Shown here piece by piece: positions 18,717 to 59,540 of a stretch of DNA of 64,000 nt. Under the pieces are notes generated by a model, which was given only the letters and a program-made list of their open reading frames with translations, made no database searches and was not told where the DNA came from. Numbering within the stretch: position 1 is the first letter of the stretch; each line of letters starts with the position of its first letter. Origin of the DNA: Euryarchaeota archaeon UBA91. Lineage in GTDB: Archaea > Thermoplasmatota > Poseidoniia > Poseidoniales > Poseidoniaceae. The stretch spans positions 114-64,113 of the forward strand of contig DAMU01000040.1 of assembly GCA_002499705.1 (NCBI GenBank), given 5' to 3'. Made by a program: the position numbers and the translations under genes.

Positions 18717-18806
18717 GGAATGGCCTTTAGCCGTGAGCACATGAACTCGTCGCTTGACCAACTACAAACGAACATGTTGAAGTAGTGCCGATTTTCACAA
18801 ACTTTC

Positions 18807-19187
18807 ATGGCCACCATAGAGATTAACGAACCAAGTTTTTCCGACATAATCGACAACAACTCCATCGTACTGCTCGACTTTTGGGCTTCATGGTGCGGAC
18901 CATGCGTTGCGTATGGCCCTGTATATGAACGAGTTTCTGAAGATTTCCCAGATGTCGTATTCGGGAAAATCGATACAGAAGCCGAACCGAAACTTGCTCA
19001 ATCCTTCAATATCCGTTCTATACCCACTACAATTGCATTCAAAGAGGGTATCGGCGTTTTCATGCAACCCGGCGCTCTTCCCGAAGATGCTCTACGAGAC
19101 TTGGTGGCCAAAATCAGTGAGTTGGACATGGATGAAGTTCGAGCTGAGCTCAAAAATCGAAAGGATTCTGAAGAAGTCCAAGAATAA
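18807..19187 (+). CDS. trxA: Thioredoxin
   Basis: WASWCGPC active site in a ~105-aa thioredoxin fold, plus a short acidic C-terminal extension. Confidence 0.9.
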
Positions 19188-44768: not shown

Positions 44769-44927
44769 GCTGTTGCCACAGGCGCGTAGGACATGAATTA
44801 TTGCATTTGGCCACTTTCGGATGTTAAAGCCCTTTTTTCAGCGCAAATACTGGGCATTTATGTCGCTGTAATGGCTGTTTATGCAATATGGTTTGAAACT
44901 CTTGCATTTCGGGTCAATCATTGTGTG

Positions 44928-44939
44928 AGAACCGGTTCT
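44928..44939. promoter_or_regulatory. Perfect 12-bp palindrome AGAACCGGTTCT, 30 nt upstream of the first gene of the archaellum-linked operon
   Basis: Read directly: ...gtgAGAACCGGTTCTttc... Located in the 200-bp bcp / 44969 divergent intergenic region, which also holds three TGCATTT/GCATTT copies and an A/T-rich TTTATGCAATAT stretch. Confidence 0.3.
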
Positions 44940-44968
44940 TTCAATAACCGGCGAGTGTTAAGAGGTCT

Positions 44969-45400
44969 ATGGTGGCTAAGCGTATGTCTCGACGTTGTCG
45001 CCGGTATTCGAAAAAGATTCTACGCGCAAACACCAAGTTTGATCTTCAAACCATTGCAAGTACTATCCAAAGCGAACTCGATAAGCGTAATTTGTCTTAT
45101 GACGAGGCTTTGACACTCGGCAACATCATTCAAAGTCGTGCAGACCAATTGCCCGGAGACGCAATCGTCTATGCTGTATCAGACCGAGACGCATACCGTC
45201 GAACACTCGAACTCTACTTGCGCGACTCTCTACTGACTCAGACTGAGCAACTTCTTCTCTGGGATGAACGTCGTCGTCTCGGCATTTCCGATGTTGAACA
45301 CGAGCGATTACTCGAGCAACTTCTCCTCCAGTGGCGCAAACAAGGCAAGAAAGTTACAATCGCCAATTTTGAAAGACCAGGAAGTGGTACATCTGCGTAA
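44969..45400 (+). CDS. Hypothetical basic helical cytoplasmic protein (143 aa), first gene of the archaellum-linked unit
   Basis: ATG preceded by AGAGGT. Balanced, helix-rich sequence (…LTQTEQLLLWDERRRLGISDVEHERLLEQLLLQWRKQG…) with a basic N-terminus. I recognise no family. Confidence 0.55.
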   Translation: MVAKRMSRRCRRYSKKILRANTKFDLQTIASTIQSELDKRNLSYDEALTLGNIIQSRADQLPGDAIVYAVSDRDAYRRTLELYLRDSLLTQTEQLLLWDERRRLGISDVEHERLLEQLLLQWRKQGKKVTIANFERPGSGTSA

Positions 45401-48400
45401 TCTTCGATTGAATCAAACGACTTTGGCTGCACTCCTTGTTGCATTGTTCCTCGTGCCCTCGTTTTTACCGTTGGTTGGAGCAGACCAATCAGATGATTCA
45501 AGCACGACTGCTCGAAACTCACAACTCGATTTCACGTTCCGAAATCCATTGATGGTGACCAATTATGGTAGTGGTGACAATGGTTCTGCAATCATCGATG
45601 GTGCATTGTATCTTGAACCAGGAAAACACATGATTACTGCTAACATTTCTGCTACAGGAAGCGGAAGTGGAGAGCTCTGGCTTGTATTGCAGCACAAAGG
45701 TTCTCCTATTCTTGGATTCAGCGATGTCCCTGGAAAGACCATATCTCTTGGAACTGTAACCGGCAACGGAGGAGTGCTCGACCTTGCTCCAGTGACTTTC
45801 AGTTGGGATGCGACGACCGGTGCAGGTCAAGAGTTGCGAATTAAAATCCAATCTTCCAACGAGGCTGGTAACCAACTTCTCAACAACATCCAAGCATTGC
45901 CAATTTCATTTTCGGTTGAGAACAAGCATTTTGGCGAGGTCATCTCAAATAATCTGCCAACCGTTTCTGCCGACACCAATCAAATGGTCATGTCCGAGAC
46001 CATCAATCAGATCAATGTAAGTGTGACCAACTCGGGCGTTACCTCACTTCAAGCGAACATGACGGTAACTCTCACTCAAAACGGAACTTCACCTATAGAG
46101 ATAGATTCAAATGCCCTTAATCTTGAACCCGGCAGTTTTACCTTCACGCCAGTCCAAGATTCAGGAGTTCTTACCGCTTCTATTGACGTACCAGCCCTCG
46201 GAATTACAGGCGTTTACAACTTATCAATCACGGTTAAATTTTGGGGAGCAGGGTGGCAATCCGACCCTGCAACTCAACCTTCTTTGAAAATCGAAGGATG
46301 GGTAAAGTTCACTGACTACAATTCCGAAGTAATTGCGCCATCGACCATCGTTGGTGAACCTGGCGACACTGTTAGCATGACTTTCGTGGTTAAAAACACA
46401 GGTATCAAGAATGACCGGTTCAACATCGGTATGGTCGAAACCATCTCTCCAGCATGGACTTCAGGAGTGGCTCCTGACTTCGGAGCAAATGATTTGGCTC
46501 CGGGCGCTGTTCGACTTGTCACTGTTGAGGTGAGCATACCGGCAAGTGCTCAGCGCTCGATGACCGATACCATCACACTCACGTTCACTTCTCAAGCATC
46601 GACTGACAACTTCCAGATTGTAGCAGTCGGTAGAGTGATGGTCGGGGATTTCTTTAGTGGCGAAGCCAAATTCGAGGGTGATGCAAACGACCCCGGTGCT
46701 GACGATGCCCAATCTATTGTTCCTGGAGGTTTTGTTGATTTTAATGTCCGTGTCTCGAATTTAGGGAGTGTCGACTCTGCATTTTTGCTTGGCTCAGGAT
46801 TTGCGGTAAATGCTCTCAATTGGTCATTGGAAGTAGGAACGACAGGTAGTGGCCAACACACAACCCGAGTTATCTCTGCAGGAAGTTCTGAAATTGTCCA
46901 AGTAAAGGTTATTTCACCCCCAATTCAATCACCTATCGTAACCAGCGAGCGTAATACTGCTGGAGATTTAGTCGGCATATGGCTCTCTTGCCAACCGCTG
47001 AGTGGCGGTTCGCTTACATTGGATGACGCCACCGTTAAAGTCACATCAACAATCGTTGTTGACCCCGGCATAAACACAGAACCACAGACCGTATCTGCTG
47101 AAGAAATATCGGCTGCATTGACCGGTTCAATTATCACTCGGAATCCTTCGCTTAATTTGAGAGTGTTCAACAACCTTGCTCTTGCAACATCGTCTGGTGG
47201 AGGTTCCTTAAGCGACGAGAAACTCGACGCCGTCATTTCTTTTACCACCAGTTTTACCAGCGCAAGTGATGGTGGGTTTAGTGAAGCCGACCGTTGGAGT
47301 GTTTCGCTAACAAATCCGATTTACACAGGATTGCTCCCCAATGCCAGCGAAGATACCACACTCAATATTGCAGGACCAACCGGCGGAGAATTCCCTCTCG
47401 CAGGCACATTCACCGTATCAGTAACGGTCACGCCCACCCTCAGCGTAGCGCTTGAAGGAAGCGGCGTAGGTGTTGTTACAGTTACTCGAGATTACACTTT
47501 GATTATTCCTTCGATTATTCAAGGTGAATTCCTTGGGCCAAATTTCCCTCAAGACATCAATGTCGGTACTGAAAACCAAATCCCTCTCCAATTTGCAAAC
47601 ACTGGCAATGATGTTGCATCCTACCGTCTGCGCGTCTTAGACAGCGACCTTCCTGAGAACTGGATTGCGAACTTTAGCGAAGCCGATACAACCATTGAAA
47701 ATTTGACTTCTGATATTTCCGATGGAATAATCGACACGGGCACTTCCAGCCCTAACGTAATTCACACACGCATCGTGACCCTGAATATTCGAACAGATCC
47801 ACTTGCTCCTTCAGGACTTGTCCAGCCAATCCCAATACAAGTTGAAGATCCGTATTCTGGCCAAATCATAGGTGAGCAGTTCACCGTATATGTGGTCGTA
47901 GGTCAAGTCTATGACGCTGCTCTTTCGCCAACCAATCACACGGAACAACTTGAAGTTACACAATCTCAAGAGCACACAATCTTTGTTCGAAATACCGGTA
48001 ATGCCCCTACAGATTATTCCATTATGATAGATACATCTCAAGCAGGAGATGTTGAGTTTGAAATAGTCTCTCCTTTGAATAATAAATTGTTCATCGCTGC
48101 AGGCTATGAAGATTCTATTCGAGTGCGAATGACTGCAAATGCGGATGCCAATTATGACGAATTCTACATGGCAACCGTTTGGGTTTCCGCTAACGATGGT
48201 CAAATTTTGCTTTCATCGAACATTGTTGCAAACATAAGTGAAAATCATTCGTTCGTCATATCAGCAATTGAGGAATTAGCAGTTACACCGGGGACAGAAG
48301 AAGTCATTGATTTCAACTTGACCAATCGAGGAAATTTACAAGAATCCATCACTGTGAATTTCACCGTCGAAGGCGATCTCTCGTTATCCGACTATACCAT

Positions 48401-50501
48401 GACGCAGACAATACCAATCAATCAATCGTTTTCTGACCAACTCACGGTCACGATTCCTGAACTTACTTCATCAGACTCGATGGCTCAAGGAGATAGTTAC
48501 AATCTTACCATTACCGTGCTTAGTTCTGCAGGAAATGAATACAGCAGTCGCGTCATTAAATTGATTGTGCAACCATTGTTTATTGTAGAATCAAACGATT
48601 GGCCATCAGTCATGGAGTTTATGCCTCAATCGGATCGTACATGGGAAGTAACGCTCACAAATACCGGGAATCGTGATGTTATGGTGAGCGCAGCTTACAC
48701 CATCACCCGGCCTGGTCTGAGCAATTTCTCTTCTGATTGGCAAATGGTAAGTCAACCTTCGACTATTTCTCTTCCAAGAAATACACCTGTCGTTCATACA
48801 TTCACTGTGGTCGGAATGACTTCGAATCCTCTGCTATCACTGTCAGCTGATTTGACTATTTTCCTCCAACCGATGGACCTCACCGTTCAAGGAAGTGGTG
48901 AATTCTCGACACAACTGGTCATGTCACGATTCTATTCAACCGGTGAGATTGGACTGGCTCCGAGTGAAAACGACAATGATCCTGTGCCGGTGTACATTCC
49001 TCACACGCACATACCGGTGAGCAACTCCTCGTCCGCAGCCTATGAAGTTGAGTTGTGCAACTCGCAACGCCTGTTAAACCTCAACGCAATGGGCCTAGTA
49101 GAATCAGATTATCCATGGAACTTTACTCTTGTAGAAGAAAAAATAGACGGAACGACTGTCGGCCACCCGCTTGACCTCAACCAAGAATGTGGTGCCTCTT
49201 CTCTTGGCCCAACATCCCGTTATCCGTTATTAGAACAAGTAGCGTGGGATACTTCCAACATCAAACTCGAGGTTGATATCCCTAATCGCGGCTTCATTTT
49301 ACCTGGAGATGGTTGGAATCTAACGTTCCGGTTGTATCATCCCGAGGATAATGCTGGTTACACGCAGTATGATGAAGAAACATTCACCTTGGTCTTGGCG
49401 GTCTTTGCAGATCCAATGATTATGAGCGTTTCTTCGAATGACGGTTACTTCGAAGAAGGCACTGAAACAACCGTCACAGTCCTCATTCAGAATGTTGGTT
49501 CTGCTTCTGCTCTTGATGTAATCGTTGAATTACAATGTGATCTCCTAACGGTATCAAACAAAGCGAACGAACAGCCTCCATTGTATAACCGAAGCGTGAA
49601 TGGTGGAGTGAACACATCTATGATACCGTTCTTCTTCCCTGGTGATTCTGTATCTTTGCAATGGGTTGTTACAGCAAATTCAATCGATTGGTGGTCGCAA
49701 CGAGCCGAGGCAACTTGTATTGCTTCTCTTAATGCATCTTACATGGACAGTAACATCGAGGCGAACGATCAACTAAGCCTTATTGAAGATGTCAAATCTC
49801 AATCACCTGGTGTATCCAACAGTTTCATTGCGTGTATTGTTTTCATGCTCCTTTCGATTATCCTCTTCAGATTAACTGCCCAAAATGAGAACTTCAGATT
49901 ACTCGGTATTTATTCAGGAGTCGTTGGATTTGGATTCTCATTCCACATTTTCCAATATGCCTGGTGGGGTATTGTCGTCCTTGTTCTCAGCGCGCTCTGG
50001 ATATGGAGAGTGAGTTGGGGCAGTACTGAAGAGTTCAGATTATTGCATGAAGACTACCAGCGCGCACGCAAAGGTGTTTCAACGCTGTATTCTGACCACT
50101 TTGAGGAATTGGCAGACACTCGTCGCCAACTCAGCGTCATTCTCGCAGTTCCGGTTCTTGGTATGCTTGCTGTTGTTCTCGGACTTCCACCGTCCCTCTC
50201 AACAGACCAAACCAATTTGGTAAGTCTTATTTCGTATATCGGCGTTGTAATGATTGGGGTTTGGCTCATCATCAAGCGTGCAGATTCAGCTTACGGCTCA
50301 TTGTATGGACGTCTCACCGATATTGAGGTTAAATCTGTTCGAATTGAGAGAGATTTGAGCGATCCAGCACGACTCTTCAATGAACTTGCAGTCGATGGAT
50401 TAAATCTCGATGAAATCTTTGGAGACCTTGAACCTCCTGTGCCTGTGCCTGCTCCTGTCGTCATTGACGGAACAAACGAGGAGGTGAGTGACGATGTCTG
50501 A
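45384..50501 (+). CDS. Giant (~1706 aa) surface protein: 8 or more CARDB/NEW3-like beta-sandwich repeats, five C-terminal TM helices, cytoplasmic tail
   Basis: Signal LRNLRLNQTTLAALLVALFLVPSFLPLVGA. Repeated (V/L)xNxGN-type strands: VKNTGIKNDRFNI, VSNLGSVDSAFLL, FANTGNDVASYRL, VRNTGNAPTDYSI, LTNRGNLQESITV, LTNTGNRDVMVSA, IQNVGSASALDVIV. TM helices lie at about 49824..50275. The in-frame GTG at 45384 is preferred over the ATG at 45264, which would overlap the previous ORF by 137 nt. Confidence 0.8.
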   Translation: MVHLRNLRLNQTTLAALLVALFLVPSFLPLVGADQSDDSSTTARNSQLDFTFRNPLMVTNYGSGDNGSAIIDGALYLEPGKHMITANISATGSGSGELWLVLQHKGSPILGFSDVPGKTISLGTVTGNGGVLDLAPVTFSWDATTGAGQELRIKIQSSNEAGNQLLNNIQALPISFSVENKHFGEVISNNLPTVSADTNQMVMSETINQINVSVTNSGVTSLQANMTVTLTQNGTSPIEIDSNALNLEPGSFTFTPVQDSGVLTASIDVPALGITGVYNLSITVKFWGAGWQSDPATQPSLKIEGWVKFTDYNSEVIAPSTIVGEPGDTVSMTFVVKNTGIKNDRFNIGMVETISPAWTSGVAPDFGANDLAPGAVRLVTVEVSIPASAQRSMTDTITLTFTSQASTDNFQIVAVGRVMVGDFFSGEAKFEGDANDPGADDAQSIVPGGFVDFNVRVSNLGSVDSAFLLGSGFAVNALNWSLEVGTTGSGQHTTRVISAGSSEIVQVKVISPPIQSPIVTSERNTAGDLVGIWLSCQPLSGGSLTLDDATVKVTSTIVVDPGINTEPQTVSAEEISAALTGSIITRNPSLNLRVFNNLALATSSGGGSLSDEKLDAVISFTTSFTSASDGGFSEADRWSVSLTNPIYTGLLPNASEDTTLNIAGPTGGEFPLAGTFTVSVTVTPTLSVALEGSGVGVVTVTRDYTLIIPSIIQGEFLGPNFPQDINVGTENQIPLQFANTGNDVASYRLRVLDSDLPENWIANFSEADTTIENLTSDISDGIIDTGTSSPNVIHTRIVTLNIRTDPLAPSGLVQPIPIQVEDPYSGQIIGEQFTVYVVVGQVYDAALSPTNHTEQLEVTQSQEHTIFVRNTGNAPTDYSIMIDTSQAGDVEFEIVSPLNNKLFIAAGYEDSIRVRMTANADANYDEFYMATVWVSANDGQILLSSNIVANISENHSFVISAIEELAVTPGTEEVIDFNLTNRGNLQESITVNFTVEGDLSLSDYTMTQTIPINQSFSDQLTVTIPELTSSDSMAQGDSYNLTITVLSSAGNEYSSRVIKLIVQPLFIVESNDWPSVMEFMPQSDRTWEVTLTNTGNRDVMVSAAYTITRPGLSNFSSDWQMVSQPSTISLPRNTPVVHTFTVVGMTSNPLLSLSADLTIFLQPMDLTVQGSGEFSTQLVMSRFYSTGEIGLAPSENDNDPVPVYIPHTHIPVSNSSSAAYEVELCNSQRLLNLNAMGLVESDYPWNFTLVEEKIDGTTVGHPLDLNQECGASSLGPTSRYPLLEQVAWDTSNIKLEVDIPNRGFILPGDGWNLTFRLYHPEDNAGYTQYDEETFTLVLAVFADPMIMSVSSNDGYFEEGTETTVTVLIQNVGSASALDVIVELQCDLLTVSNKANEQPPLYNRSVNGGVNTSMIPFFFPGDSVSLQWVVTANSIDWWSQRAEATCIASLNASYMDSNIEANDQLSLIEDVKSQSPGVSNSFIACIVFMLLSIILFRLTAQNENFRLLGIYSGVVGFGFSFHIFQYAWWGIVVLVLSALWIWRVSWGSTEEFRLLHEDYQRARKGVSTLYSDHFEELADTRRQLSVILAVPVLGMLAVVLGLPPSLSTDQTNLVSLISYIGVVMIGVWLIIKRADSAYGSLYGRLTDIEVKSVRIERDLSDPARLFNELAVDGLNLDEIFGDLEPPVPVPAPVVIDGTNEEVSDDV

Positions 50502-51504
50502 TTCGGATAGCGTAGACCTCCCAGGTGAAGAACATACACTTGAGGAACAACCTCCATTTGACGGGGTTCAATCCGGTGACGCTCCATCCCCAAATCAACT
50601 AAGCAACGAATCTATGTCCGAGCAAGCAATCGCAATATCTCGAGACTTAGAGACAATGGTCCTTGGAGTGGCTCAGAACGATGCGAATTCACTTGCGGGA
50701 ACTGAACTCGAAATTGGTGACGCAAGGAGATTTTTGCGCTCACACAAACTTCGACGAGCACTCGCAAGCGTAAAGAATGCAGAAGCATCTCTTGTTGAAC
50801 TTGAAGAAGATGTCTTGTATCTTCGCCGTAACATTGCTATGTTGCACCGCCTTCTTAATGAGAAAAGAGTGAGTGAAGCAGATATAGAAACGATTCTTCT
50901 TCGCCTTCGAAGTGCAACTGGGGCAGCTGAAATAGGCGATGTTGGCGGTGCTGCAGGTGAAGTTGAATTCCTCGTGGACGATCTCATCGGTGGAAACACA
51001 TCAACTCTCAACCCCTTCCTCTTCCGTCATTTCTGGATGGGTCTGGAAACCCGATGGCCAGCAGGTGGTGATGAAGGCGTTCTCGTGGTTCGTATCATCA
51101 ATGATGGACCCGTTGCCATGCCCCCTATGCGACTTGCTCCCCCAGTCCCTGAAGGATGGACTGCAAAACCATCTTCGGTTGACCTTCCAACGATCGCTCC
51201 TGGTGGAAACCTCCCTGTGCGTTTCAATGTCGCGACAAATCGCCGTCAGGCTGCGGATGAAATTCCACTTTCTCGTAAGCTCGCAATTTCCACAGGTTAT
51301 GAAATCAGAACAGGTGAAGTCTTTGTGACCATCCGTGCACAAAATCGTTCGATGGAACCTCTAACAGATATTCTCCTCACGCCTTGGTTCCCGCCAGGTT
51401 ACATTTCGGACAAGGTGCCCTTTGTGTCACGTCTTGCTCCAGACGAAGTGGCAATGATTCGGATTCCACTTCGAATTAACATGAGTTCAGGAGGTAATTC
51501 TTGA
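50494..51504 (+). CDS. Hypothetical cytoplasmic protein (337 aa): acidic N-terminus, helical/coiled-coil region, two NEW3/CARDB-like beta-sandwich modules
   Basis: GAGGAGGTGA lies 6 nt upstream of the ATG. ATGTCTGA overlaps the stop of the giant gene. No signal peptide or TM. Helical LRRALASVKNAEASLVELEEDVLYLRRNIAMLHRLLNEK. Beta modules VLVVRIINDGPVAMPPMRLAPPVPEGWTAKPSSVDLPTIAPGGNLPVRFNV and VFVTIRAQNRSMEPLTDILLTPWFPPGY...EVAMIRIPLRI. Confidence 0.75.
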   Translation: MSDSDSVDLPGEEHTLEEQPPFDGVQSGDAPSPNQLSNESMSEQAIAISRDLETMVLGVAQNDANSLAGTELEIGDARRFLRSHKLRRALASVKNAEASLVELEEDVLYLRRNIAMLHRLLNEKRVSEADIETILLRLRSATGAAEIGDVGGAAGEVEFLVDDLIGGNTSTLNPFLFRHFWMGLETRWPAGGDEGVLVVRIINDGPVAMPPMRLAPPVPEGWTAKPSSVDLPTIAPGGNLPVRFNVATNRRQAADEIPLSRKLAISTGYEIRTGEVFVTIRAQNRSMEPLTDILLTPWFPPGYISDKVPFVSRLAPDEVAMIRIPLRINMSSGGNS

Positions 51505-51553
51505 ACTCAATCTATTCCACCCTGTATTGGGGGATTCTAAAAACGGTGAAATT

Positions 51554-52102
51554 ATGAAAGAAAATACGGACGAAAAACACGACAATCTCGCAGCCATAGG
51601 TATCGGCGCAATGATTGTTTTTATTGCGCTAATTCTGGTTGCGTCAGTTGCAGCAGCTGTAATTATATCAACTGCTGAAAAATTACAACAAAACGCCCAG
51701 AATACAGGTGCGGAGACGACAAACATGCTCTCCTCAAAGGTAGTTGTTCTGAGTGTTATGGTAATACAGAACAGTGATTTGTATATTACTTTTGAATTAG
51801 CACCAGGTTCTTCAAATATTGCTCCAGGAGACATTGATTTCGCGATTGTATGCTCGAATGGTGCAGTGTATGGGGATTTCTCTCTAACTTCACTCGTTGG
51901 TACTAATGCGGGTTTACCGCTTAATACACTGTTACAATCCCATACGACCTATGACATTACTTTAGCATCAGCACTTATTGCAGACTGTCCACCGACTGCC
52001 AACGATGACCATTCACTTGTCATTCAGTCAGAATACGGCGGATACACGTTTGAAGCATTGAATTATGGATCCGACGTTACTCCAGGGGCGGTGGTTGTAT
52101 GA
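51554..52102 (+). CDS. arlB: Archaellin (class III signal peptide)
   Basis: MKENTDEKHDNLAAIGIGAMIVFIALILVASVAAAVIISTAEKLQQNAQNTG is the archaellin N-terminal helix. The track start at 51527 is TTG; the ATG at 51554 follows GGTGA. Confidence 0.9.
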   Translation: MKENTDEKHDNLAAIGIGAMIVFIALILVASVAAAVIISTAEKLQQNAQNTGAETTNMLSSKVVVLSVMVIQNSDLYITFELAPGSSNIAPGDIDFAIVCSNGAVYGDFSLTSLVGTNAGLPLNTLLQSHTTYDITLASALIADCPPTANDDHSLVIQSEYGGYTFEALNYGSDVTPGAVVV

Positions 52103-52707
52103 AGACTGACTCTAAGCAAATTAAGGACGACAAGATTGCAGCAATCGGTATTGGAGCAATGATTGTTTTCATCGCTCTTATTCTGGTCGCAGCAGTTGCC
52201 GCAGCCGTTATTATTCAAACCGCAGAGAAACTTCAACAAAGCGCAGAAACAACTGGCGATGACACCGCCAAAAATCTCGCAGGGAAGTTTGTAATCCACG
52301 ACGGTTTTGTCGCAACAGGGGCAAACGGTGGTTTACCAACCTACACTGATGCGAACGCTTACTTCTTTACAGCGACACTCGCACCAGGAAGTACACCGAT
52401 TCGAATCAATACAATCACCTACCAAATGTTTTGTGATAGTGGTTTAATCGAAGGGGTATTTGGTACGGATGCAGATGTTCAAGAAATGCATAACGGAGAC
52501 AATGGAGTCCTTGCGGCTACAGTTGAACTCCAACCTAAACAGCAGTACGTTTTGTGGGTTCTAGCGTCTGATAACGGTATCGATTGTTCAGCAGGAAATG
52601 CTGCAGGTGATACGACCATTGAACTTGCAATCCACGTCGGCACTGGAGGTTCGACCTTCCTCACATTAAATGTTGATTCAACCACTGCTGGAGCACCGGT
52701 GGTCTGA
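52099..52707 (+). CDS. arlB: Archaellin (class III signal peptide), second copy
   Basis: MKTDSKQIKDDKIAAIGIGAMIVFIALILVAAVAAAVIIQTAEKLQQSAETTG. ATGA overlap with the first archaellin. Confidence 0.9.
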   Translation: MKTDSKQIKDDKIAAIGIGAMIVFIALILVAAVAAAVIIQTAEKLQQSAETTGDDTAKNLAGKFVIHDGFVATGANGGLPTYTDANAYFFTATLAPGSTPIRINTITYQMFCDSGLIEGVFGTDADVQEMHNGDNGVLAATVELQPKQQYVLWVLASDNGIDCSAGNAAGDTTIELAIHVGTGGSTFLTLNVDSTTAGAPVV

Positions 52708-52741
52708 TGTTGACTTTTAGAAAAGAATTGGAGGAATAATT

Positions 52742-53578
52742 ATGGCATGGCCTTTTAGTAAAAATACCAATCAAAATCAAGATGCTGATGCAGCTCTCAC
52801 AGAAGAGCGCCTCAAGATTATGTCGAACATTGCTATTGAGCAAGTTCCACTACCGGAACAAGGTGAACTGGGTGAAGAAGATGCATGGACGATCAGTCCT
52901 GGGCTTACGAAAGCTCGGCTCAACAGTATCGGAAGCGTACCAACTGTTGCTGCGAATCTTGCACCAGCCTCAGCACCGGCACCTGTGAGTACTACCGTAG
53001 ACACATCGGGACTTGAACGTCTCATCAGCACCCGCCTTGACATGGTAGAAGATGTCCTGCGCATGGTTGAAGTTCGTCTGGATGAGGGACCGTCCGGTTC
53101 CAATTCAGGAGAGTCTCAATCCGAAGGTGACGGAGATACTGCTGCCTTGGATGGTGACACGATTGTTACTGCCTCTGGCGAGACAATTAGTGTCTCAGGC
53201 ACTGATCGAATGATGGGTACTGATGAAGCACCATTGGTCGAATTGTATGAAGCACAGGCATTGGCAGCGAATCCATTTTTGCATGCCCCTTCATTTGGCG
53301 CACATACAGAAACAAACCATGTTGGTGCTCCAACCATTTCAGCGCTCTTGCTTGCAAACATGTCCGGAATGGCTGCGGTGAGTTTTGCTCAGAAAGCCAT
53401 GGCTTCTGGAATGCTTACCGATGATGAAGGCCGAAAAGTCCTCGCAATCGTGCAACTTGCAGAACCTGGTGAATCAGAAGCCGCTCTTGACGACCACTTG
53501 ACACACAAGGAGTTGCTCACGTTTTCATCGCTTGTGAGTTCATGGCGAAGCGTGAAATCACTTCGAGGTGAAGTCTGA
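52742..53578 (+). CDS. Hypothetical acidic soluble protein (278 aa) in the position normally held by arlC/D/E
   Basis: GGAGGA lies 6 nt upstream. No TM. Ala/Pro-rich linker, acidic Ser/Gly-rich middle, helical C-terminal region. I see no match to the FlaC or FlaD/E domains. Confidence 0.7.
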   Translation: MAWPFSKNTNQNQDADAALTEERLKIMSNIAIEQVPLPEQGELGEEDAWTISPGLTKARLNSIGSVPTVAANLAPASAPAPVSTTVDTSGLERLISTRLDMVEDVLRMVEVRLDEGPSGSNSGESQSEGDGDTAALDGDTIVTASGETISVSGTDRMMGTDEAPLVELYEAQALAANPFLHAPSFGAHTETNHVGAPTISALLLANMSGMAAVSFAQKAMASGMLTDDEGRKVLAIVQLAEPGESEAALDDHLTHKELLTFSSLVSSWRSVKSLRGEV

Positions 53579-53579
53579 T

Positions 53580-54233
53580 ATGGGCGCCTCGGTTGGTGTG
53601 GGGGGTCTCATTGTAGGGATCTCAATGTTGTTGGTCTTTTCAATGGCCATTACAACATTAAGCAGTCAAACAACGACTTCTTTAGAAGTTATTGAATCTG
53701 CTCAGACACCAGCCCCAATCATCACAATCGAAAGTGCGCAATACCTCAATTCAATACACAGTATTAGCATCCTTAACGGCGGTAATGGCTATGTTGACGG
53801 TCAACTCATCTCATCAGATTGTCCTGGTTTTTCAGCAGATTTCACCGTGATTGCCGGTGTCATATCTTCCGTTGATACAATTGTCAACCGAGGTGTTTGT
53901 AATGCTGACCCTGCCACAATCGAAGTCGAAAACCAACCCGGTGGAAGTAACGCAGATTTTGACTCAGAGATAAAACGCTATTTTCACGGCGAAGTCACGA
54001 ATGATGGGTCTGAGACACTTTCTACCGGCGAGGTTTGGTTTTTCTTTGACGGCTTGTCACCAACAACCATGACTTCATCCGATTTTTCTCCATCCGTAGT
54101 GAAGAATAATTGGTTTTCTGGAGAGACAATTTCCGTTATTGGTGCGAGTGAAGGCCCTACGCCTTTACTTTCTCGAATGAGTATTACTGTTGGTGAAACG
54201 AGTGTTTCGAAAACGATAGTCGTTCCAGCATGA
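53580..54233 (+). CDS. arlF: ArlF-like archaellum protein
   Basis: MGASVGVGGLIVGISMLLVFSMAITTL resembles the FlaF-type MGFS... N-terminal hydrophobic helix followed by a beta-rich domain. Position is upstream of arlG-H-I-J. GAGGTGA lies 8 nt upstream. The F versus G assignment rests on order and N-terminus only. Confidence 0.65.
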   Translation: MGASVGVGGLIVGISMLLVFSMAITTLSSQTTTSLEVIESAQTPAPIITIESAQYLNSIHSISILNGGNGYVDGQLISSDCPGFSADFTVIAGVISSVDTIVNRGVCNADPATIEVENQPGGSNADFDSEIKRYFHGEVTNDGSETLSTGEVWFFFDGLSPTTMTSSDFSPSVVKNNWFSGETISVIGASEGPTPLLSRMSITVGETSVSKTIVVPA

Positions 54234-54242
54234 GGTGAGAAG

Positions 54243-54761
54243 ATGGCAGACGGTGGAGCATCAACAATCATCATGCTGGTTACCGCATTGCTCATTTCAA
54301 GTGCAGCGAGTGCTGTCCTAATCCAAGAATGGTCCTCTACCTCACGAGTCATGCAACAGCAACAGATGGGGTTACAAATCTCTGAAGAGATCGGAATTGA
54401 TTTTGCTGGTGACCCGATGATGGTCGATCTCCAACTGGGCGCAACTCCGGCAGCACTCAACGAAATAACGTTCTATGTTCAGAACACTGGCATTCACAAG
54501 ATGAATGAAAACTCACTTTCTATCATCGTCGATGGAGTTACCCTTGACGGAACTTCAATTGTAAGTCGGTCGTTTGTACCAAACACTGCCGGTGATTGGG
54601 ACTCACATGTTTTACTTGAAATAAAAATGCGCGATATCGCCTTTGACGCATATGTCGATGGCGAAGAAATTTCAATCTTTGCGATCGCACGTTCGCTCAA
54701 TATTAACGGAATTTCGATGAGTGCCGAGATGAGTGAGGAGGTGCAATTGCATGTCTCCTGA
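54243..54761 (+). CDS. arlG: ArlG-like archaellum protein
   Basis: MADGGASTIIMLVTALLISSAASAVLIQEW is an archaellin-like N-terminal helix. 172 aa, located between arlF and arlH. GAGGTGA lies upstream. Confidence 0.65.
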   Translation: MADGGASTIIMLVTALLISSAASAVLIQEWSSTSRVMQQQQMGLQISEEIGIDFAGDPMMVDLQLGATPAALNEITFYVQNTGIHKMNENSLSIIVDGVTLDGTSIVSRSFVPNTAGDWDSHVLLEIKMRDIAFDAYVDGEEISIFAIARSLNINGISMSAEMSEEVQLHVS

Positions 54762-55494
54762 GCACGGTAATGAAGATCCGTTGATGACGGCACACAAGCC
54801 AATAGAAGATGGATTCCCTTATGATCTTGAAACGGATTCATTAGCAGATTCGATGGGTCTTCGTCTTCCGAATCGTTCTCTCTATGTTCTCCAGGGGACT
54901 GTTGGTGGTGGTAAATCTCTCATTTCCCAACGCCTTGTCTATGGATTAGTTGAAAACGGTGTCAAGGTCTTGGTTATCACAACTGAACTGACGACTCGCG
55001 GTTGGATTGAACAAATGGAATCCATTGGATACGGCGTTACCGATGCAGTTCGTGAAGGAAAACTTCTCATCTTCAGCCGTTTTGGAACTATTGCTGAATC
55101 TAAACCTGAGGTTAAGTTGGAACAACTCTTAGATTCTGAAGCAATCGAATTAGCCGATGTTGTTGTCATCGATTCAGCGAGTTCGATTATGCCTTCTGAT
55201 CTTGACGATATCAGTCGTTTTAATTTGATGCAGCGTCTTCGTCAAATCTCATCGAAAGGGCGTTCACTGATGTTGTGCGTCGACCCTGAAGAGATGGATG
55301 AGAAGTTGATGCATAACATGCGCAGTTCTGCTGAAATTGTATTGGATCTTACAACGAACATGATTGGAGGAGAAATCAAACGAAACATCGTTGTTACTCG
55401 TTTCTTACGCGCAGCCGGTCCTGTCCAAACATCGATTGGATGGCGTGTTGAACCAAGTATGGGCTTCATCGTTGATATTACTGCGGTGAGTTGA
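54751..55494 (+). CDS. arlH: ArlH (FlaH), RecA/KaiC-like ATP-binding archaellum protein
   Basis: Walker A LQGTVGGGKSLISQRL, KVLVITTELTT, VVVIDSAS (Walker B-like). GAGGAGGTG lies 7 nt upstream of the ATG at 54751. Confidence 0.85.
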   Translation: MSPEHGNEDPLMTAHKPIEDGFPYDLETDSLADSMGLRLPNRSLYVLQGTVGGGKSLISQRLVYGLVENGVKVLVITTELTTRGWIEQMESIGYGVTDAVREGKLLIFSRFGTIAESKPEVKLEQLLDSEAIELADVVVIDSASSIMPSDLDDISRFNLMQRLRQISSKGRSLMLCVDPEEMDEKLMHNMRSSAEIVLDLTTNMIGGEIKRNIVVTRFLRAAGPVQTSIGWRVEPSMGFIVDITAVS

Positions 55495-55508
55495 GGAGGG
55501 ATATTACG

Positions 55509-57227
55509 ATGGTTGAAGAAGAACTCCGATTTGCTCGAGGTGACCTGAATGCGGTCATGAACGCACACCCTCACGTTGGCGATTGGGTTCGGGATTTTGA
55601 GGCGAAATACGGTTCCCGTCCTATCTATTATGGGCCCTTGGATCGAGATGCTAAAAAGCAACGACCACTCAATTTAATTTATCTTGCAAAGGAACCTATC
55701 TTTGTCCATATTTACGAACCTCCTGCGGACGAAGAAGGTGGTGGTCAAGTCCTATGGTTCGGTTTAGAGCCTCAATTGACTGAAGAAGAAGAGAATATTC
55801 GTAGACAATTGGTTGAAACACTGCTCCAAGAGGCTCCAAGCGCTCCGACTTTTACAACCGATTCAGAGTTTGAGTCAATCCTCGCTCGAATGATTGATCA
55901 ATACACTGTCCTTGAATCTGAACTTACTACCAATGTACGTCGTCAAGGACGCATGTGGGAAATGATGGGCTTAGATGACAAGCGCATGCTTGTTACTCCT
56001 GAGCAGCGCGAACGATTACAATACATCATCATTCGCGATTTGATACGAAACGGCCCTCTTGAACCCCTACTCTCCGATGAAATGTTGGAAGATATTCACT
56101 CCATTGGTTTGAAGCACGTTCACATGGATCACAAAGTGTTTGGAATGGTCTCCTCAAACATCCGTTTCCGAGACCGCGACGTTCTCGCTCGTTTCTTACG
56201 TGCCATGTCTGAACGTATCGGCCGACCAGTTTCAGACAATAAGCCGATTATCGATGGTGCTTTGCTTGACGGCTCACGTATCAATATTATTTTCTCCGAT
56301 GACGTATCAATGCTCGGCCCTTCGTTCACCATCCGTAAGTTCGCTGAGGAAACAATTTCGATTACTCAACTTATCGCATGGGGGACGATTTCATCTCAAG
56401 TTGCCGCCTATATCTGGATCTGTCTTGAATACGGCATGTCCGTGCTCGTGTCTGGTGAAACCGCATCCGGAAAGACGACGACATTGAATGCAATTTTACC
56501 GTTCATTGATCACAATGTTAAGATCTATTCAGCAGAAGACACACCTGAAGTTAAGGTTCGTCACAAGATTTGGCAACGTCTGGTTACTCGAACATCAAAG
56601 AGTGAAGATTCGAGCGTTGAAATGTTCGATTTGTTGAAGGCAGCTTTACGTAGCCGTCCCAGATACATCATCATCGGTGAAATTCGTGGTGTTGAAGGAG
56701 CAACTGCATTCCAAGCAATGCAGACTGGTCACCCAGTTATCGCTACATTCCACGCATCATCCATCGTTAAAATGATTCAGAGATTTACCGGTGACCCAAT
56801 CAATGTTCCAATTCGTTTCTTCGACAACCTGAACTTCGCTATTTTCCAAGAAGTGGTTGAAGCGCCTGGTGGCGGAATTGCTCGACGTGTTACGGGTATT
56901 GACGAGGTCATTGGATACAATAAACACAGCGACGGTGTGCTTACCCGTGGTATGTTCGAATGGGATCCTGTGAAGGACAAGCACTATTTCCGAGGTATGT
57001 TTCAAAGTCATTTACTTGAAAACAAAATTGCAGCAATGGCAGGATTTGCTAATAAGCGTGACATTTACGATGAAATGCTCAAGCGCGCAGATGCTCTTCA
57101 ACGCATGGTAGACCGAGACCTTACCCACTATGACGACGTTTTCGATTTACTTGGAATTTATTACAACAGTGGATGGGATCATTTCGATAAAGCCGTTGAT
57201 AGTTGGAAAGGCATAAACCATGATTGA
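55509..57227 (+). CDS. arlI: ArlI (FlaI), archaellum assembly/motor ATPase (type II/IV secretion ATPase superfamily)
   Basis: VLVSGETASGKTTTLNAILPFI (Walker A), YIIIGEIRGVEGATAFQAMQTGHPVIATFHA. GAGGAGGG lies 8 nt upstream of the ATG at 55509. Confidence 0.95.
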   Translation: MVEEELRFARGDLNAVMNAHPHVGDWVRDFEAKYGSRPIYYGPLDRDAKKQRPLNLIYLAKEPIFVHIYEPPADEEGGGQVLWFGLEPQLTEEEENIRRQLVETLLQEAPSAPTFTTDSEFESILARMIDQYTVLESELTTNVRRQGRMWEMMGLDDKRMLVTPEQRERLQYIIIRDLIRNGPLEPLLSDEMLEDIHSIGLKHVHMDHKVFGMVSSNIRFRDRDVLARFLRAMSERIGRPVSDNKPIIDGALLDGSRINIIFSDDVSMLGPSFTIRKFAEETISITQLIAWGTISSQVAAYIWICLEYGMSVLVSGETASGKTTTLNAILPFIDHNVKIYSAEDTPEVKVRHKIWQRLVTRTSKSEDSSVEMFDLLKAALRSRPRYIIIGEIRGVEGATAFQAMQTGHPVIATFHASSIVKMIQRFTGDPINVPIRFFDNLNFAIFQEVVEAPGGGIARRVTGIDEVIGYNKHSDGVLTRGMFEWDPVKDKHYFRGMFQSHLLENKIAAMAGFANKRDIYDEMLKRADALQRMVDRDLTHYDDVFDLLGIYYNSGWDHFDKAVDSWKGINHD

Positions 57228-57237
57228 GGGATAATGT

Positions 57238-59040
57238 ATGCAGCGAATGTCTTCCTGGCAAATCGCTCTGCGTCGCATAGAAATGCCCATTTCACAATTC
57301 ATTTTGTTCTTCGTTGGTGGTGCTGCACTTACAGGATTTATCTTCTCTTTCATTTTGATATCCGTCACCGGTGGTACTGGTGATCAAGGTCTTTTTACTG
57401 GTAGTTCGAGTATTCTTTTGGCCCTCTTACTCCCACTCATCACAGGTGGGGCAGCCTTCGTATTCCCGTTACTTGAGGTCCGTCGTTCGGCGACCATGAT
57501 CGAAAAAGAGATGCACATGTTCATCACTCGAATGGGAATTCTATCATTGGGTGAAGTCGCAGCCCAATCGATTTTCGATATCCTAAAGCAGATGAGTGAT
57601 TATGGTGAACTCGCTATTGAAGTGAAGCGGATTGAAACTCTTGTCGACAAATGGCATACCTCTTTGCCTGAAGCATCTCGAATCGTTGCTCAGCAAAGTC
57701 CCAGCCCCCTGTGGGCTGATTTCCTTGATCGAATGGCTTTTTCAATTGAGGCAGGTCAACCGATTGACGAATTTATGCGCTCAGAACAAGAAACGGTTTC
57801 CGAACAATACGCTACGCTCTACGACACTCGCCTTGAATCGGTCGATACGATGAAAGAAATCTATGTTTCTTTGGTTTCTGCCGGATTATTTGGTTTAGTT
57901 ATTGCAGGAATTCACCTTGTCCTTTTCGAAGTTGGTTCAGCAAGCGATACTCCAATCATGGTTGCGAGTCGCCTGCGCTTCTTACTGCTTGCAGGTTTGT
58001 TGTTTACCGTCGTTCAGGTTGGTGCTGTTTTTGCATTCCGTGCCTCTATTCCTGAAGACCCAACTTTTGCTCGTGACACCTTAGATACTCCGTTTCGTAT
58101 TAATTTCGTTCGCTCGCTTGTACTGTCCTTCGTTCTTACAGGCATACTTCTGGTTGTAACCATCATCACTATTCTTTCAGCTTGGCAGGCGGTCACGTCT
58201 CAGTGGGACCGTTATGGATTGCTGCTCATCGCTGCTCCGTTATCTCCAATGCTTATTCCTGCGCTGATGGTTGGACGAGAAGAGCGACAAATTCTTCGCA
58301 GAGACGAAACCTATCCTGATTTTATTCGAGCACTTGGTGGAACCGCTCAAGCACGTTCGGCAGAACCTTCTGCTACAATCAAAGCACTCCGTGGCATTGA
58401 TTTTGGAATGCTTGACAACTCTATCGACCGTTTGGAACGTCGACTTTCAACCCGAATCGATTCGGATAGAGCATGGGATTACTTCAATGCAGATACGAAC
58501 TCTGCTGTTATCTCTCGTTATACTCGAATTTACATTGAAGGCTCTCAATCTTCGGGTCAGCCGGCACGAACTGCCGAAATGGTTTCTCGAACGGTAGGCA
58601 GTCTTCTTTCTCTGCGCCGCCGCAGATCTCTCTCAGCCAACACCATGCGTGGCGTAGCGCTTGGTTTACTCATTGCTTGTGTAACCAGCCTGAATGTTAC
58701 GATTTCTATTGTCGTACGTCTCGGTGATTCAATTGCAGGAATCGCAACGACATTCACTGAGAACAGCAATGTCGACCTCGCCCAGTTCGGTGCTCAAATT
58801 GCACTACCAATCATGGACGATGCTTCAGGAGTTAGTGAAAACATTCGCTTGTTCAAAATCATTGTTTCCATTCTTATCCTTTTCCAAGTCTGGGCGGTTT
58901 CAGTCATTTCGAATCGACTCCGAGGTGGTGGTATGACCACCGCACTGGGGCAATCGATTCAACTGCTTTGGATTGCCGGGATAACTTCGTATGTCACATC
59001 GCTGATTCTCGAATCTGCTGCAGCACTATTCAATGTGTGA
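57238..59040 (+). CDS. arlJ: ArlJ (FlaJ), polytopic archaellum membrane platform protein
   Basis: 600 aa. Two blocks of TM helices separated by cytoplasmic helical domains (T2SS-F-like duplication). Immediately downstream of arlI. Confidence 0.85.
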   Translation: MQRMSSWQIALRRIEMPISQFILFFVGGAALTGFIFSFILISVTGGTGDQGLFTGSSSILLALLLPLITGGAAFVFPLLEVRRSATMIEKEMHMFITRMGILSLGEVAAQSIFDILKQMSDYGELAIEVKRIETLVDKWHTSLPEASRIVAQQSPSPLWADFLDRMAFSIEAGQPIDEFMRSEQETVSEQYATLYDTRLESVDTMKEIYVSLVSAGLFGLVIAGIHLVLFEVGSASDTPIMVASRLRFLLLAGLLFTVVQVGAVFAFRASIPEDPTFARDTLDTPFRINFVRSLVLSFVLTGILLVVTIITILSAWQAVTSQWDRYGLLLIAAPLSPMLIPALMVGREERQILRRDETYPDFIRALGGTAQARSAEPSATIKALRGIDFGMLDNSIDRLERRLSTRIDSDRAWDYFNADTNSAVISRYTRIYIEGSQSSGQPARTAEMVSRTVGSLLSLRRRRSLSANTMRGVALGLLIACVTSLNVTISIVVRLGDSIAGIATTFTENSNVDLAQFGAQIALPIMDDASGVSENIRLFKIIVSILILFQVWAVSVISNRLRGGGMTTALGQSIQLLWIAGITSYVTSLILESAAALFNV

Positions 59041-59081
59041 AATATCCCAACAATCATAACCCGATTGTAAGATGAATTATC

Positions 59082-59540
59082 ATGCAAGTCCCTCCACCAC
59101 CCGCCCCAGTCTCGCCAACTCAACCCGTAATCCCAGCTGCGCCATCACCATACCAGCCAGCAGCAGGTTTCCAACAGTCTGTTCTCAGTTACTCGTTTCA
59201 CCGTTGTCTCATGATTGGTGTAATCCTTATTCTTGCATCGGTCGTCTTTGTTGAAGTTATTGAGATGGATGGAGCACCATCTTTGGTTGACTATGACATG
59301 GAAGTTGAAGGTCAAATGGAACAGATGCTGGAAGATACTGAATCACATACCGACTTGAATCGCGTTATAGGTTCCTTTAGTGCAATTCTCCAAGCCATCG
59401 GACTTGGGATGATTGGCTATGCACTGCTAAGAGAATCTCATGACGGAACCAATGAGCACACAGCACTGCGAGTCACTACCGTTATCGTTGGTGCTTTGGT
59501 TCTCGTAAACATTGCTTCTCGAAGTATTACCATCTTCTGA
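59082..59540 (+). CDS. Hypothetical membrane protein (152 aa) with a Pro-rich N-terminus, last gene of the archaellum unit
   Basis: MQVPPPPAPVSPTQPVIPAAPSPYQP, then three hydrophobic helices (LMIGVILILASVVFV, FSAILQAIGLGMIGYALL, TTVIVGALVLVNIA). Starts 41 nt after arlJ. Confidence 0.6.
   Translation: MQVPPPPAPVSPTQPVIPAAPSPYQPAAGFQQSVLSYSFHRCLMIGVILILASVVFVEVIEMDGAPSLVDYDMEVEGQMEQMLEDTESHTDLNRVIGSFSAILQAIGLGMIGYALLRESHDGTNEHTALRVTTVIVGALVLVNIASRSITIF

Follow-up and report, generated by a model that had tools for sequence, protein, structure and literature searches.

A putative ArlC-family protein and a conserved surface-protein module in the archaellum gene cluster of Poseidoniales

We analyzed a 64,000-nucleotide (nt) stretch of contig DAMU01000040.1 (positions 114 to 64,113; assembly GCA_002499705.1) of Euryarchaeota archaeon UBA91, which is referred to in full as the window. 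It contains an archaellum-type cluster of genes for recognizable archaellum proteins (arlB1, arlB2, arlF, arlG, arlH, arlI, and arlJ) together with five genes that we call g1, g2, g3, g6, and g12. The central result concerns g6, a 278-amino-acid (aa) protein encoded between the archaellin genes and arlF, in the slot of arlC/D/E in the euryarchaeal arl1 operon. As judged from its sequence, g6 is probably a diverged ArlC-family protein in which the chemotaxis-linked part has been lost or replaced. In addition, g1, g2, g3, and g6 remain associated with the arl genes even in strongly diverged lineages.

Similarity of g6 to the ArlC family

The g6 protein is acidic (isoelectric point (pI) 4.35), lacks a transmembrane segment, and contains a helix (residues 89-114) that is followed by an acidic linker, by the block LYEAQALAANPFL (residues 168-180), and by a helical C-terminal domain of ~95 aa. 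It had no match in Pfam or NCBIfam. The family is narrow, with 71 representatives among 1.8 billion in a profile search, and a genome scan with a narrower g6 alignment returned Poseidoniaceae only. In the family alignment, which reaches down to 25% identity, the invariant core is L-x2-LYE-x6-NPFL. Weak matches to the Pfam FlaC_arch model (PF05377) were obtained for five of 15 family members, with scores of 12-16 bits (E=0.016-0.27) compared to a gathering cutoff of 27.8 bits. The four matches with listed positions all map to the last 15-38 of the 55 profile positions and fall on the NPF block.

Canonical comparators were obtained by using FlaH of Methanocaldococcus jannaschii (PDB 4WIA) to fetch metagenome contigs with the gene order flaB-C-D-E-F-G-H. 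Canonical FlaC from Methanocaldococcus-like contigs reads ALYEVVSNQINPFIG and ArlC-ArlD/E fusions read LYDWLTRQYNPFI, with a motif spacing identical to that of g6 and canonical FlaC. In a 238-aa fusion on a DPANN-like contig, the corresponding sequence is VLYDWLTRQYNPFIE; all 13 relatives of this fusion match PF04659 and about half of them match PF05377, with N, P, and F invariant. The fusion of ~240 aa corresponds to positions 259-975 of locus L093 (P0360; relatives P0361-P0373), and two members are named Nanopusillaceae (DPANN).

Profile-profile comparisons by hhalign between the g6 family and the canonical ArlC or fusion alignments gave P=0.0029, 0.0048, and 0.0022, and one of them also aligned the coiled coil preceding the NPF block. 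The hhalign score of 26.3 was reached by none of 150 column shuffles (mean 10.3, standard deviation 1.8, maximum 17.8). The regular expression [LMIV]Y[ED].{6}NPF[LIV] produced 94 matches in 3.1 million six-frame residues from the window and 96 loci, all of them in g6 orthologues or canonical FlaC. Like ArlC, g6 has a coiled coil followed by an [LM]Y[ED]-x6-NPF[LI] block, and the NPF block is the most conserved one in both families.

The initial annotation had stated that arlC/D/E and arlX are missing from the cluster and that nothing in it resembles them. On the level of curated models this is correct, as no ORF (open reading frame) of the cluster passes an ArlC, ArlD/E, or ArlX model; the claim of absence is nevertheless weakened for arlC/D/E, because g6 lies in the exact slot and carries the ArlC motif LYE-x6-NPF[LI]. 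FlaC/D/E were previously described as present in all archaellated archaea and often too divergent to be recognized (Makarova 2016; PMC4858521), and Oxyplasma meridianum, a relative from the Thermoplasmatales, has the order arlB-arlC-arlD-arlF (PMC12448462). The similarities between g6 and ArlC/FlaC (PF05377) extend to its cytoplasmic and acidic nature and its location between arlB and arlF. In contrast to ArlC/FlaC, g6 scores under the family threshold, is approximately twice as long, and has an additional N-terminal region, an acidic linker, and the helical C-terminal domain, which matches nothing.

The ArlD/E domain (PF04659, Arch_fla_DE; WLEFL...YY..IGWIS...DH..SL) had no Pfam match in the 15 g6 family members, and an unfiltered hidden Markov model (HMM) of 22 canonical ArlD/E domains gave a best E-value of 1.4 in the window and the Marine Group II loci. 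The idea, formed by eye, that the C-terminal domain of g6 resembles the ArlD/E domain was dropped at hhalign E-values of 0.33-0.88. The presence of arlCDE has been tied to CheF (preprint 10.64898/2026.04.22.720090, 2026), and the missing ArlD/E domain agrees with studies that found no chemotaxis genes in Poseidoniales (Rinke 2019, PMC6461757; Orellana 2019, PMC6864105). Sequence searches of PDB with the g1, g3, and g6 profiles produced no match, and plasmid records searched for a canonical arl operon contained none. One database representative, P0287 (258 aa), in which an N-terminal Polysacc_synt_2/epimerase part is fused to the C-terminal half of g6, is probably an assembly or gene-calling chimera.

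Conservation of the cluster across lineages

All related loci were retrieved via g6. The window derives from an uncultured archaeon of the Poseidoniaceae (Marine Group II a); close relatives of g6 bear the names Candidatus Poseidoniales or Poseidoniaceae, and the loci include the original Marine Group II (MG-II) genome, CM001443. Among 83 Poseidoniaceae loci, the gene order is the same in every one of sufficient length, and because of this constancy the arrangement of the cluster cannot be attributed to chance. At the deepest splits within Poseidoniaceae, sequence identities were 69% for g1, 67% for ArlH, 61% for g6, and 55% for g3, followed by ArlG (37%), g2 (36%), ArlF (35%), and g12 (~30%, sometimes absent).

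The survey also covered five distant representatives of g6, with 28-32% identity to the window protein. Four of the five loci (L084, L086, L094, and L096) contain a giant protein, a g3 homologue, the archaellin or archaellins, g6, and arlF onwards, and the order continues to arlJ where the contig is long enough. A g1 gene precedes the giant protein in three of these four lineages and was not found in L096, whereas the 2.4-kb contig of L095 shows just an archaellin, g6, and arlF. Homology in the distant lineages is full-length for g1 (48-61% identity), g2 (23-25%), and g3 (32-38%), and the flanking genes differ in L086 and L096 on the flank or flanks visible. The proposal that all five uncharacterized ORFs are archaellum partners thus has to be narrowed: g1, g2, g3, and g6 stay with the arl genes in deep relatives, but g12 does not.

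The upstream g1-g2-g3 module

The genes g1, g2, and g3 form a translationally coupled module, and the g1/g2 and g2/g3 junctions are no longer than 7 nt or overlapping in all lineages that have the genes. The first product, g1, had no relative in Pfam, NCBIfam, or PDB. It is 69-97% identical within Poseidoniaceae, and its conservation is similar to that of ArlH.

The g2 ORF is open from 45264 and encodes an acidic, S/T-rich ectodomain of ~1440 aa with 25 N-x-S/T sequons, followed by an anchor of four to five C-terminal transmembrane segments, in which one loop is conserved and the tail is acidic. Weak matches to NPCBM_assoc, CARDB, and choice-of-anchor-T were found in Pfam and NCBIfam. Conservation within the protein is highest in the loop that separates transmembrane segments 3 and 4 (residues 1551-1600), at 82% compared to ~45% for the ectodomain. 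A second giant secreted protein is encoded elsewhere in the window (Table 1). It was ruled out as a g2 paralogue, the two proteins being unrelated by BLASTP, and has no Pfam family; it may be the real surface-layer (S-layer) protein.

The g3 protein lacks a transmembrane segment. An AlphaFold2 model of modest confidence (mean predicted local distance difference test score (pLDDT) 61.8) places a helical region at residues 38-166 and a beta-sandwich at residues 181-326. A match to NPCBM_assoc (E=1.4e-4) was under the curated cutoff, and a Foldseek comparison of the model with PDB returned generic immunoglobulin (Ig)-like sandwiches only, with template modelling scores of at most 0.21. The invariant block LVDDLIGGNTSTLNPFLFRHFW, located at the junction of the helical region and the sandwich, contains NPF, which is retained in L084, L086, and L094 and replaced by SPF in L096. 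Among 17 proteins in or beside the cluster, NPF occurs only in g3 and g6.

Organization of the cluster and its core genes

All twelve forward-strand ORFs of the initial annotation were found at their coordinates (Table 1), and its physical descriptions of the five uncharacterized proteins hold. Matches in Pfam, NCBIfam, and PDB confirmed the identities assigned to the two arlB genes, arlF, arlG, arlH, arlI, and arlJ. ArlI exceeds the cutoff of the NCBIfam FlaI model (678 versus 550 bits), and the NCBIfam matches of ArlJ and ArlH are strong yet under the strict equivalog cutoffs. ArlG additionally matched Pfam Arch_flagellin just under the cutoff (E=2.2e-6). Both archaellins begin with a short charged leader followed by a hydrophobic N-terminal helix. 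The locus is a genuine archaellum cluster. The order of arlF before arlG is that of the euryarchaeal arl1 type, and the balance of the evidence leans towards the locus being the Poseidoniales version of this type.

Table 1. Features of the archaellum gene cluster and its surroundings in the window
Feature	Coordinates	Strand	Description
Cluster span	44969-59540	+	Twelve ORFs
Conserved non-coding element CCGGTTCTTTCAATAACCGG	44932..44951	+	20 nt, 18-37 nt 5' of the g1 start
g1	44969..45400	+	143-aa basic helical protein, pI 9.8; first gene of the upstream module
g2	45384..50501	+	Surface protein of ~1705 aa; signal peptide, Ig-like repeats, C-terminal transmembrane anchor
g3	50494..51504	+	336-aa cytoplasmic protein; acidic disordered N-terminus, helical region, block LVDDLIGGNTSTLNPFLFRHFW, Ig-like beta-sandwich
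g3-arlB1 spacer	51505..51553	+	ATCTATTCCACCC...GGGGG element and GGTG Shine-Dalgarno motif
arlB1	51554..52102	+	Archaellin; PF01917 E=1.5e-19; class III signal peptide ...NLAA/IGIGAMIVFIALILVA; N-terminal hydrophobic helix
arlB2	52099..52707	+	Archaellin; PF01917 E=3.8e-20
g6	52742..53578	+	278-aa acidic cytoplasmic protein, putative divergent ArlC-like; between arlB2 and arlF
arlF	53580..54233	+	Stator component; NCBIfam ArlF E=1.1e-4 (below curated cutoff); N-terminal transmembrane segment; precedes arlG
arlG	54243..54761	+	Stator component; NCBIfam ArlG E=1.2e-9 (below curated cutoff); N-terminal transmembrane segment
arlH	54751..55494	+	KaiC-like regulator; NCBIfam ArlH E=1.1e-54; PDB 4WIA FlaH E=1.1e-32
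arlI	55509..57227	+	Motor ATPase; NCBIfam archaellum ATPase FlaI E=1.1e-203; Pfam T2SSE
arlJ	57238..59040	+	Membrane platform protein; NCBIfam ArlJ/FlaJ E=3e-117; Pfam T2SSF
g12	59082..59540	+	152-aa Pro-rich membrane protein; three transmembrane segments, Pro-rich N-terminus
Second giant secreted protein	30019-35163	+	1714 aa; signal peptide, one C-terminal transmembrane segment, acidic tail

With the most plausible start codons, the junctions between the genes range from -17 to +49 nt: -17 nt for g1/g2 (with GTG 45384), the ATGTCTGA overlap at 50494 for g2/g3, +49 nt for g3/arlB1 (with ATG 51554), ATGA at 52099 for arlB1/arlB2, +34 nt for arlB2/g6, approximately +1 nt for g6/arlF (the arlF ORF being open from GTG 53568), +9 nt for arlF/arlG, an 11-nt overlap at 54751 for arlG/arlH, +14 nt for arlH/arlI (or -4 nt with TTG 55491, from which the arlI ORF is open), +10 nt for arlI/arlJ, and +41 nt for arlJ/g12. 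The three overlaps reported at 50494, 52099, and 54751 are therefore present. Shine-Dalgarno motifs of the GGAGG/GGTGA type lie 5-12 nt 5' of g3, arlB1, g6, arlF, arlG, arlH, arlI, and arlJ, with a weaker motif 5' of arlB2 and weak or absent ones 5' of g1, g2, and g12; the statement that such motifs precede most starts is borne out for eight or nine of the twelve.

Several features of the core genes vary between lineages or stand on their own. The length of ArlF is ~213-217 aa in Poseidoniaceae, 210 aa in L086, 188 aa in L096, and 132-133 aa in L084, L094, and L095, and the longer forms carry an extra segment of ~80 aa. Archaellins are usually N-glycosylated; neither archaellin of the window (51554-52707) has an N-x-S/T sequon, and the neighbouring g2 has 25. 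The spacer between arlB2 and g6 contains a GC-rich palindrome in many relatives, whereas in the window (52708-52741) it has only CTTTTAGAAAAG. This palindrome may be a partial terminator or stabilizer that sets the ratio of archaellin to motor proteins.

The g12 gene at the downstream end is Poseidoniaceae-specific, and its link to the archaellum is doubtful. Its identity within Poseidoniaceae is 28-87%, it is missing from several loci, and it was not found in any of the distant lineages, being absent after arlJ in L084 and L094. In L086, the place of g12 is taken by a 913-aa gene without a Pfam match (16264-19005), whose start coincides with the arlJ stop.

The cluster and its unnamed genes are already published as an observation. 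Tully 2019 (PMC6336850, Fig. 4) drew a 'putative MGII motility operon' with conserved unannotated proteins, which is syntenic across Marine Group II a and present in a few Marine Group II b subclades, and Rinke 2019 (PMC6461757) reported the flagella operon in all Poseidoniaceae genera. The designation of the components as previously undescribed, made in the initial annotation, is accordingly withdrawn. These studies noted the same cluster, with FlaA/G/H/I/J, extra flagellins, and several conserved unannotated proteins, and left the unannotated genes unassigned; the present analysis ties one of them to ArlC and finds that the upstream trio accompanies the arl genes even where the flanking genes are different.

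Promoter-like elements and transcription units

The non-coding element CCGGTTCTTTCAATAACCGG is nearly invariant across 14 Poseidoniaceae upstream regions with diverged surroundings and occurs once in the window; a conserved octamer, TTTATGCA (44878-44885), is likewise nearly invariant across Poseidoniaceae. The element resembles TTCAAK/TTTAAC boxes found at similar distances 5' of other genes in the window. Based on these boxes and on its distance to the ATG, CCGGTTCTTTCAATAACCGG is a probable promoter of the B recognition element (BRE)/TATA type for g1-g2-g3, with a short leader or none. A palindrome before g1 was also considered as an RNA hairpin and rejected, since most relatives have CCGATT...AACCGG, which breaks a pair; the element is more likely a promoter or operator. 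An Rfam scan of the window produced no match, and a scan for bacterial sigma-70 promoters and intrinsic terminators remained at shuffle level and is irrelevant to an archaeon.

The spacer between g3 and arlB1 has a ATCTATTCCACCC...GGGGG element that is conserved across 14 Poseidoniaceae loci, and it is a probable archaellin promoter or leader. A YCACCC box similar to this element occurs 5' of arlB in L084 and L086 and 5' of the gene at 19247. Oligo-T runs are typical archaeal terminator signals. Across distant lineages the spacer is 43-214 nt long (103-214 nt in L084, L086, and L094), and its first part in L086, directly after g3, consists of T7 and T8 runs. Because the spacer varies in length, has these oligo-T runs in L086, and contains the conserved element in Poseidoniaceae, two transcription units, g1-g3 and arlB to arlJ, appear more likely than the single ~14.6-kb unit proposed initially. 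No Shine-Dalgarno motif was seen upstream of g12.

Comparison with known systems

The closest known system is the euryarchaeal arl1 operon, represented by arlB-C-D-E-F-G-H-I-J in Methanocaldococcus and arlB-C-D-F-G-H-I-J in Oxyplasma meridianum, which shares the core genes and their order with the present cluster and also has class III signal peptides on its archaellins. The Poseidoniales cluster differs from it in having one 278-aa gene in place of one to three recognizable arlC/D/E genes, with no detectable ArlD/E domain, as well as in the extra g1-g2-g3 module upstream and the lineage-specific 152-aa membrane gene downstream. S-layer-like Ig-fold proteins are known from arl loci of Methanococcales (arCOG05057) and Thermococcales (10.64898/2026.04.22.720090; PMC4858521). 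By description, g2 is similar to the arCOG05057-type proteins in being large, secreted, composed of Ig-like repeats, and encoded beside arl genes, but differs in its anchor of four to five C-terminal transmembrane segments, which includes the conserved loop, and in its coupling to two cytoplasmic proteins. A functional analogy to ArlX is also possible, in which the role of a membrane-anchored scaffold around ArlH/ArlI would be taken jointly by g2 and g3. In this comparison, again by description, ArlX differs in being a single small protein in which an N-terminal transmembrane segment is combined with a coiled coil, whereas g3 and g6 have no transmembrane segment.

Discussion

We favour, with some reservation, an interpretation of the locus as an arl1-type cluster of two adjacent modules that represents a lineage-specific variant of a known machine. 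The roles we infer for g1, g2, g3, and g6 build on the observed gene identities, motif, and synteny. The module formed by arlB1, arlB2, g6, arlF, arlG, arlH, arlI, and arlJ would be a complete archaellum core. Within it, g6 would be a highly diverged scaffold of the ArlC family that has kept the coiled coil and LYE-x6-NPF[LI] and may form a cytoplasmic ring or scaffold around ArlH/ArlI, lacking a recognizable ArlD/E domain, which is associated with CheF and chemotaxis elsewhere in the Euryarchaeota. The module formed by g1-g2-g3 is translationally coupled and probably has its own promoter. Its products g2 and g3 may provide the motor with an anchor across the cell envelope or with a local adaptor to the cell wall, comparable to the S-layer-like Ig-fold proteins of Thermococcales and Methanococcales archaellum loci. 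The conserved loop of g2 would be cytoplasmic if the anchor has five transmembrane segments.

Several observations speak against the assignment of g6 to the ArlC family. The window g6 itself has no FlaC_arch match and its relatives, at 12-16 bits, stay under the 27.8-bit cutoff; hhalign probabilities were just 7-13%, with the core aligned over 20 columns; g6 is missed by HMMs made from the small number of canonical sequences recovered; its C-terminal domain shows no similarity by hhalign to ArlD/E or to the C-terminus of ArlC; and its AlphaFold2 model is unusable (pLDDT 46.8). If g6 were a lineage-specific replacement without an evolutionary link to ArlC, having arrived at LYE-x6-NPF by convergence on a common partner or by coincidence, the failure to pass any curated model, the alignment of only ~20 columns, and the lack of a match between the rest of g6 and either ArlC or ArlD/E would all be expected. 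We consider this improbable, as the motif has no off-target match in 3.1 million residues, is the most conserved block of both families, is preceded by a coiled coil that aligns too, and is encoded in the exact syntenic slot. Doubt of another kind concerns the function of the filament, on which the literature is split between motility (PMC6336850) and adhesion (PMC6461757). A non-swimming adhesion filament, with the extra genes related to an adhesin, would agree with the adhesin-like appearance of g2 and with the argument of Rinke 2019 (PMC6461757), based on the lack of chemotaxis genes and the enrichment of flaJ in particle fractions. However, the stator genes for ArlF/ArlG, which a 2026 preprint treats as system-defining for the archaellum (10.64898/2026.04.22.720090), are present together with ArlH, and chemotaxis-free archaella swim in Crenarchaeota (PMC8978795) and in Oxyplasma meridianum (PMC12448462), and we regard a filament devoted to adhesion rather than rotation as unlikely.

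The association of g1-g2-g3 with the archaellum also has to be weighed against the view that these genes make up a cell-surface operon of their own, for an S-layer-like protein or adhesin plus its chaperone or regulator, which merely adjoins the archaellum genes and does not belong to the machine. The probable promoter before g1 and the probable promoter/terminator region between g3 and arlB agree with such independence, g2 looks like a generic Ig-repeat surface protein, and many S-layer-like genes were left out of the type IV pilus (T4P) gene sets on account of their varying association (Makarova 2016; PMC4858521). Synteny within Poseidoniaceae says little here, since flanking housekeeping genes (peroxiredoxin, endonuclease III, and PolX), unrelated to the archaellum, are equally fixed, and a locus sample anchored on g6 cannot show whether g1-g3 occur in arl-negative genomes. 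Moreover, the NPF motif of g3 is short, and the best g3 profile match to ArlC is a generic coiled coil whose score was reached by two of 150 shuffles. On the other hand, the adjacency survives in L086 and L096 despite different visible flank genes, g3 has a conserved NPF block like g6 and ArlC, and the unrelated giant protein with a single C-terminal anchor could itself be the real S-layer protein. An independent surface operon is therefore unlikely in our view, if less so than the other two alternatives. Going beyond the two-module interpretation, g2, g3, g6, and possibly g1 could together form an envelope-spanning scaffold that stands in for both the ArlC/D/E ring and the anchoring by the polar cap known from other Euryarchaeota. 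The polytopic anchor of g2 would then present its conserved cytoplasmic loop to two NPF-motif proteins encircling ArlH/ArlI, and the cytoplasmic stator would be bolted directly to the cell wall. We offer this as a speculative and rather improbable extension.

Marine Group II comprises the most abundant archaea of surface ocean water, and whether these organisms swim or stick to particles affects the processing of organic matter. To our knowledge, neither the location and stoichiometry of ArlC/D/E nor the composition of the polar cap has been established in the field, nor how the motor of the archaellum is kept stationary in the cytoplasm, a question on which the cluster bears. The present lineage lacks a chemotaxis system and appears to retain nothing of ArlC/D/E but the ArlC motif, and it possesses in addition a conserved module in which a membrane-anchored surface protein is combined with a cytoplasmic protein. 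The LYE-x6-NPF block may thus represent the smallest conserved contact between ArlC-family proteins and the motor, and g2 and g3 are candidates for the motor anchor.

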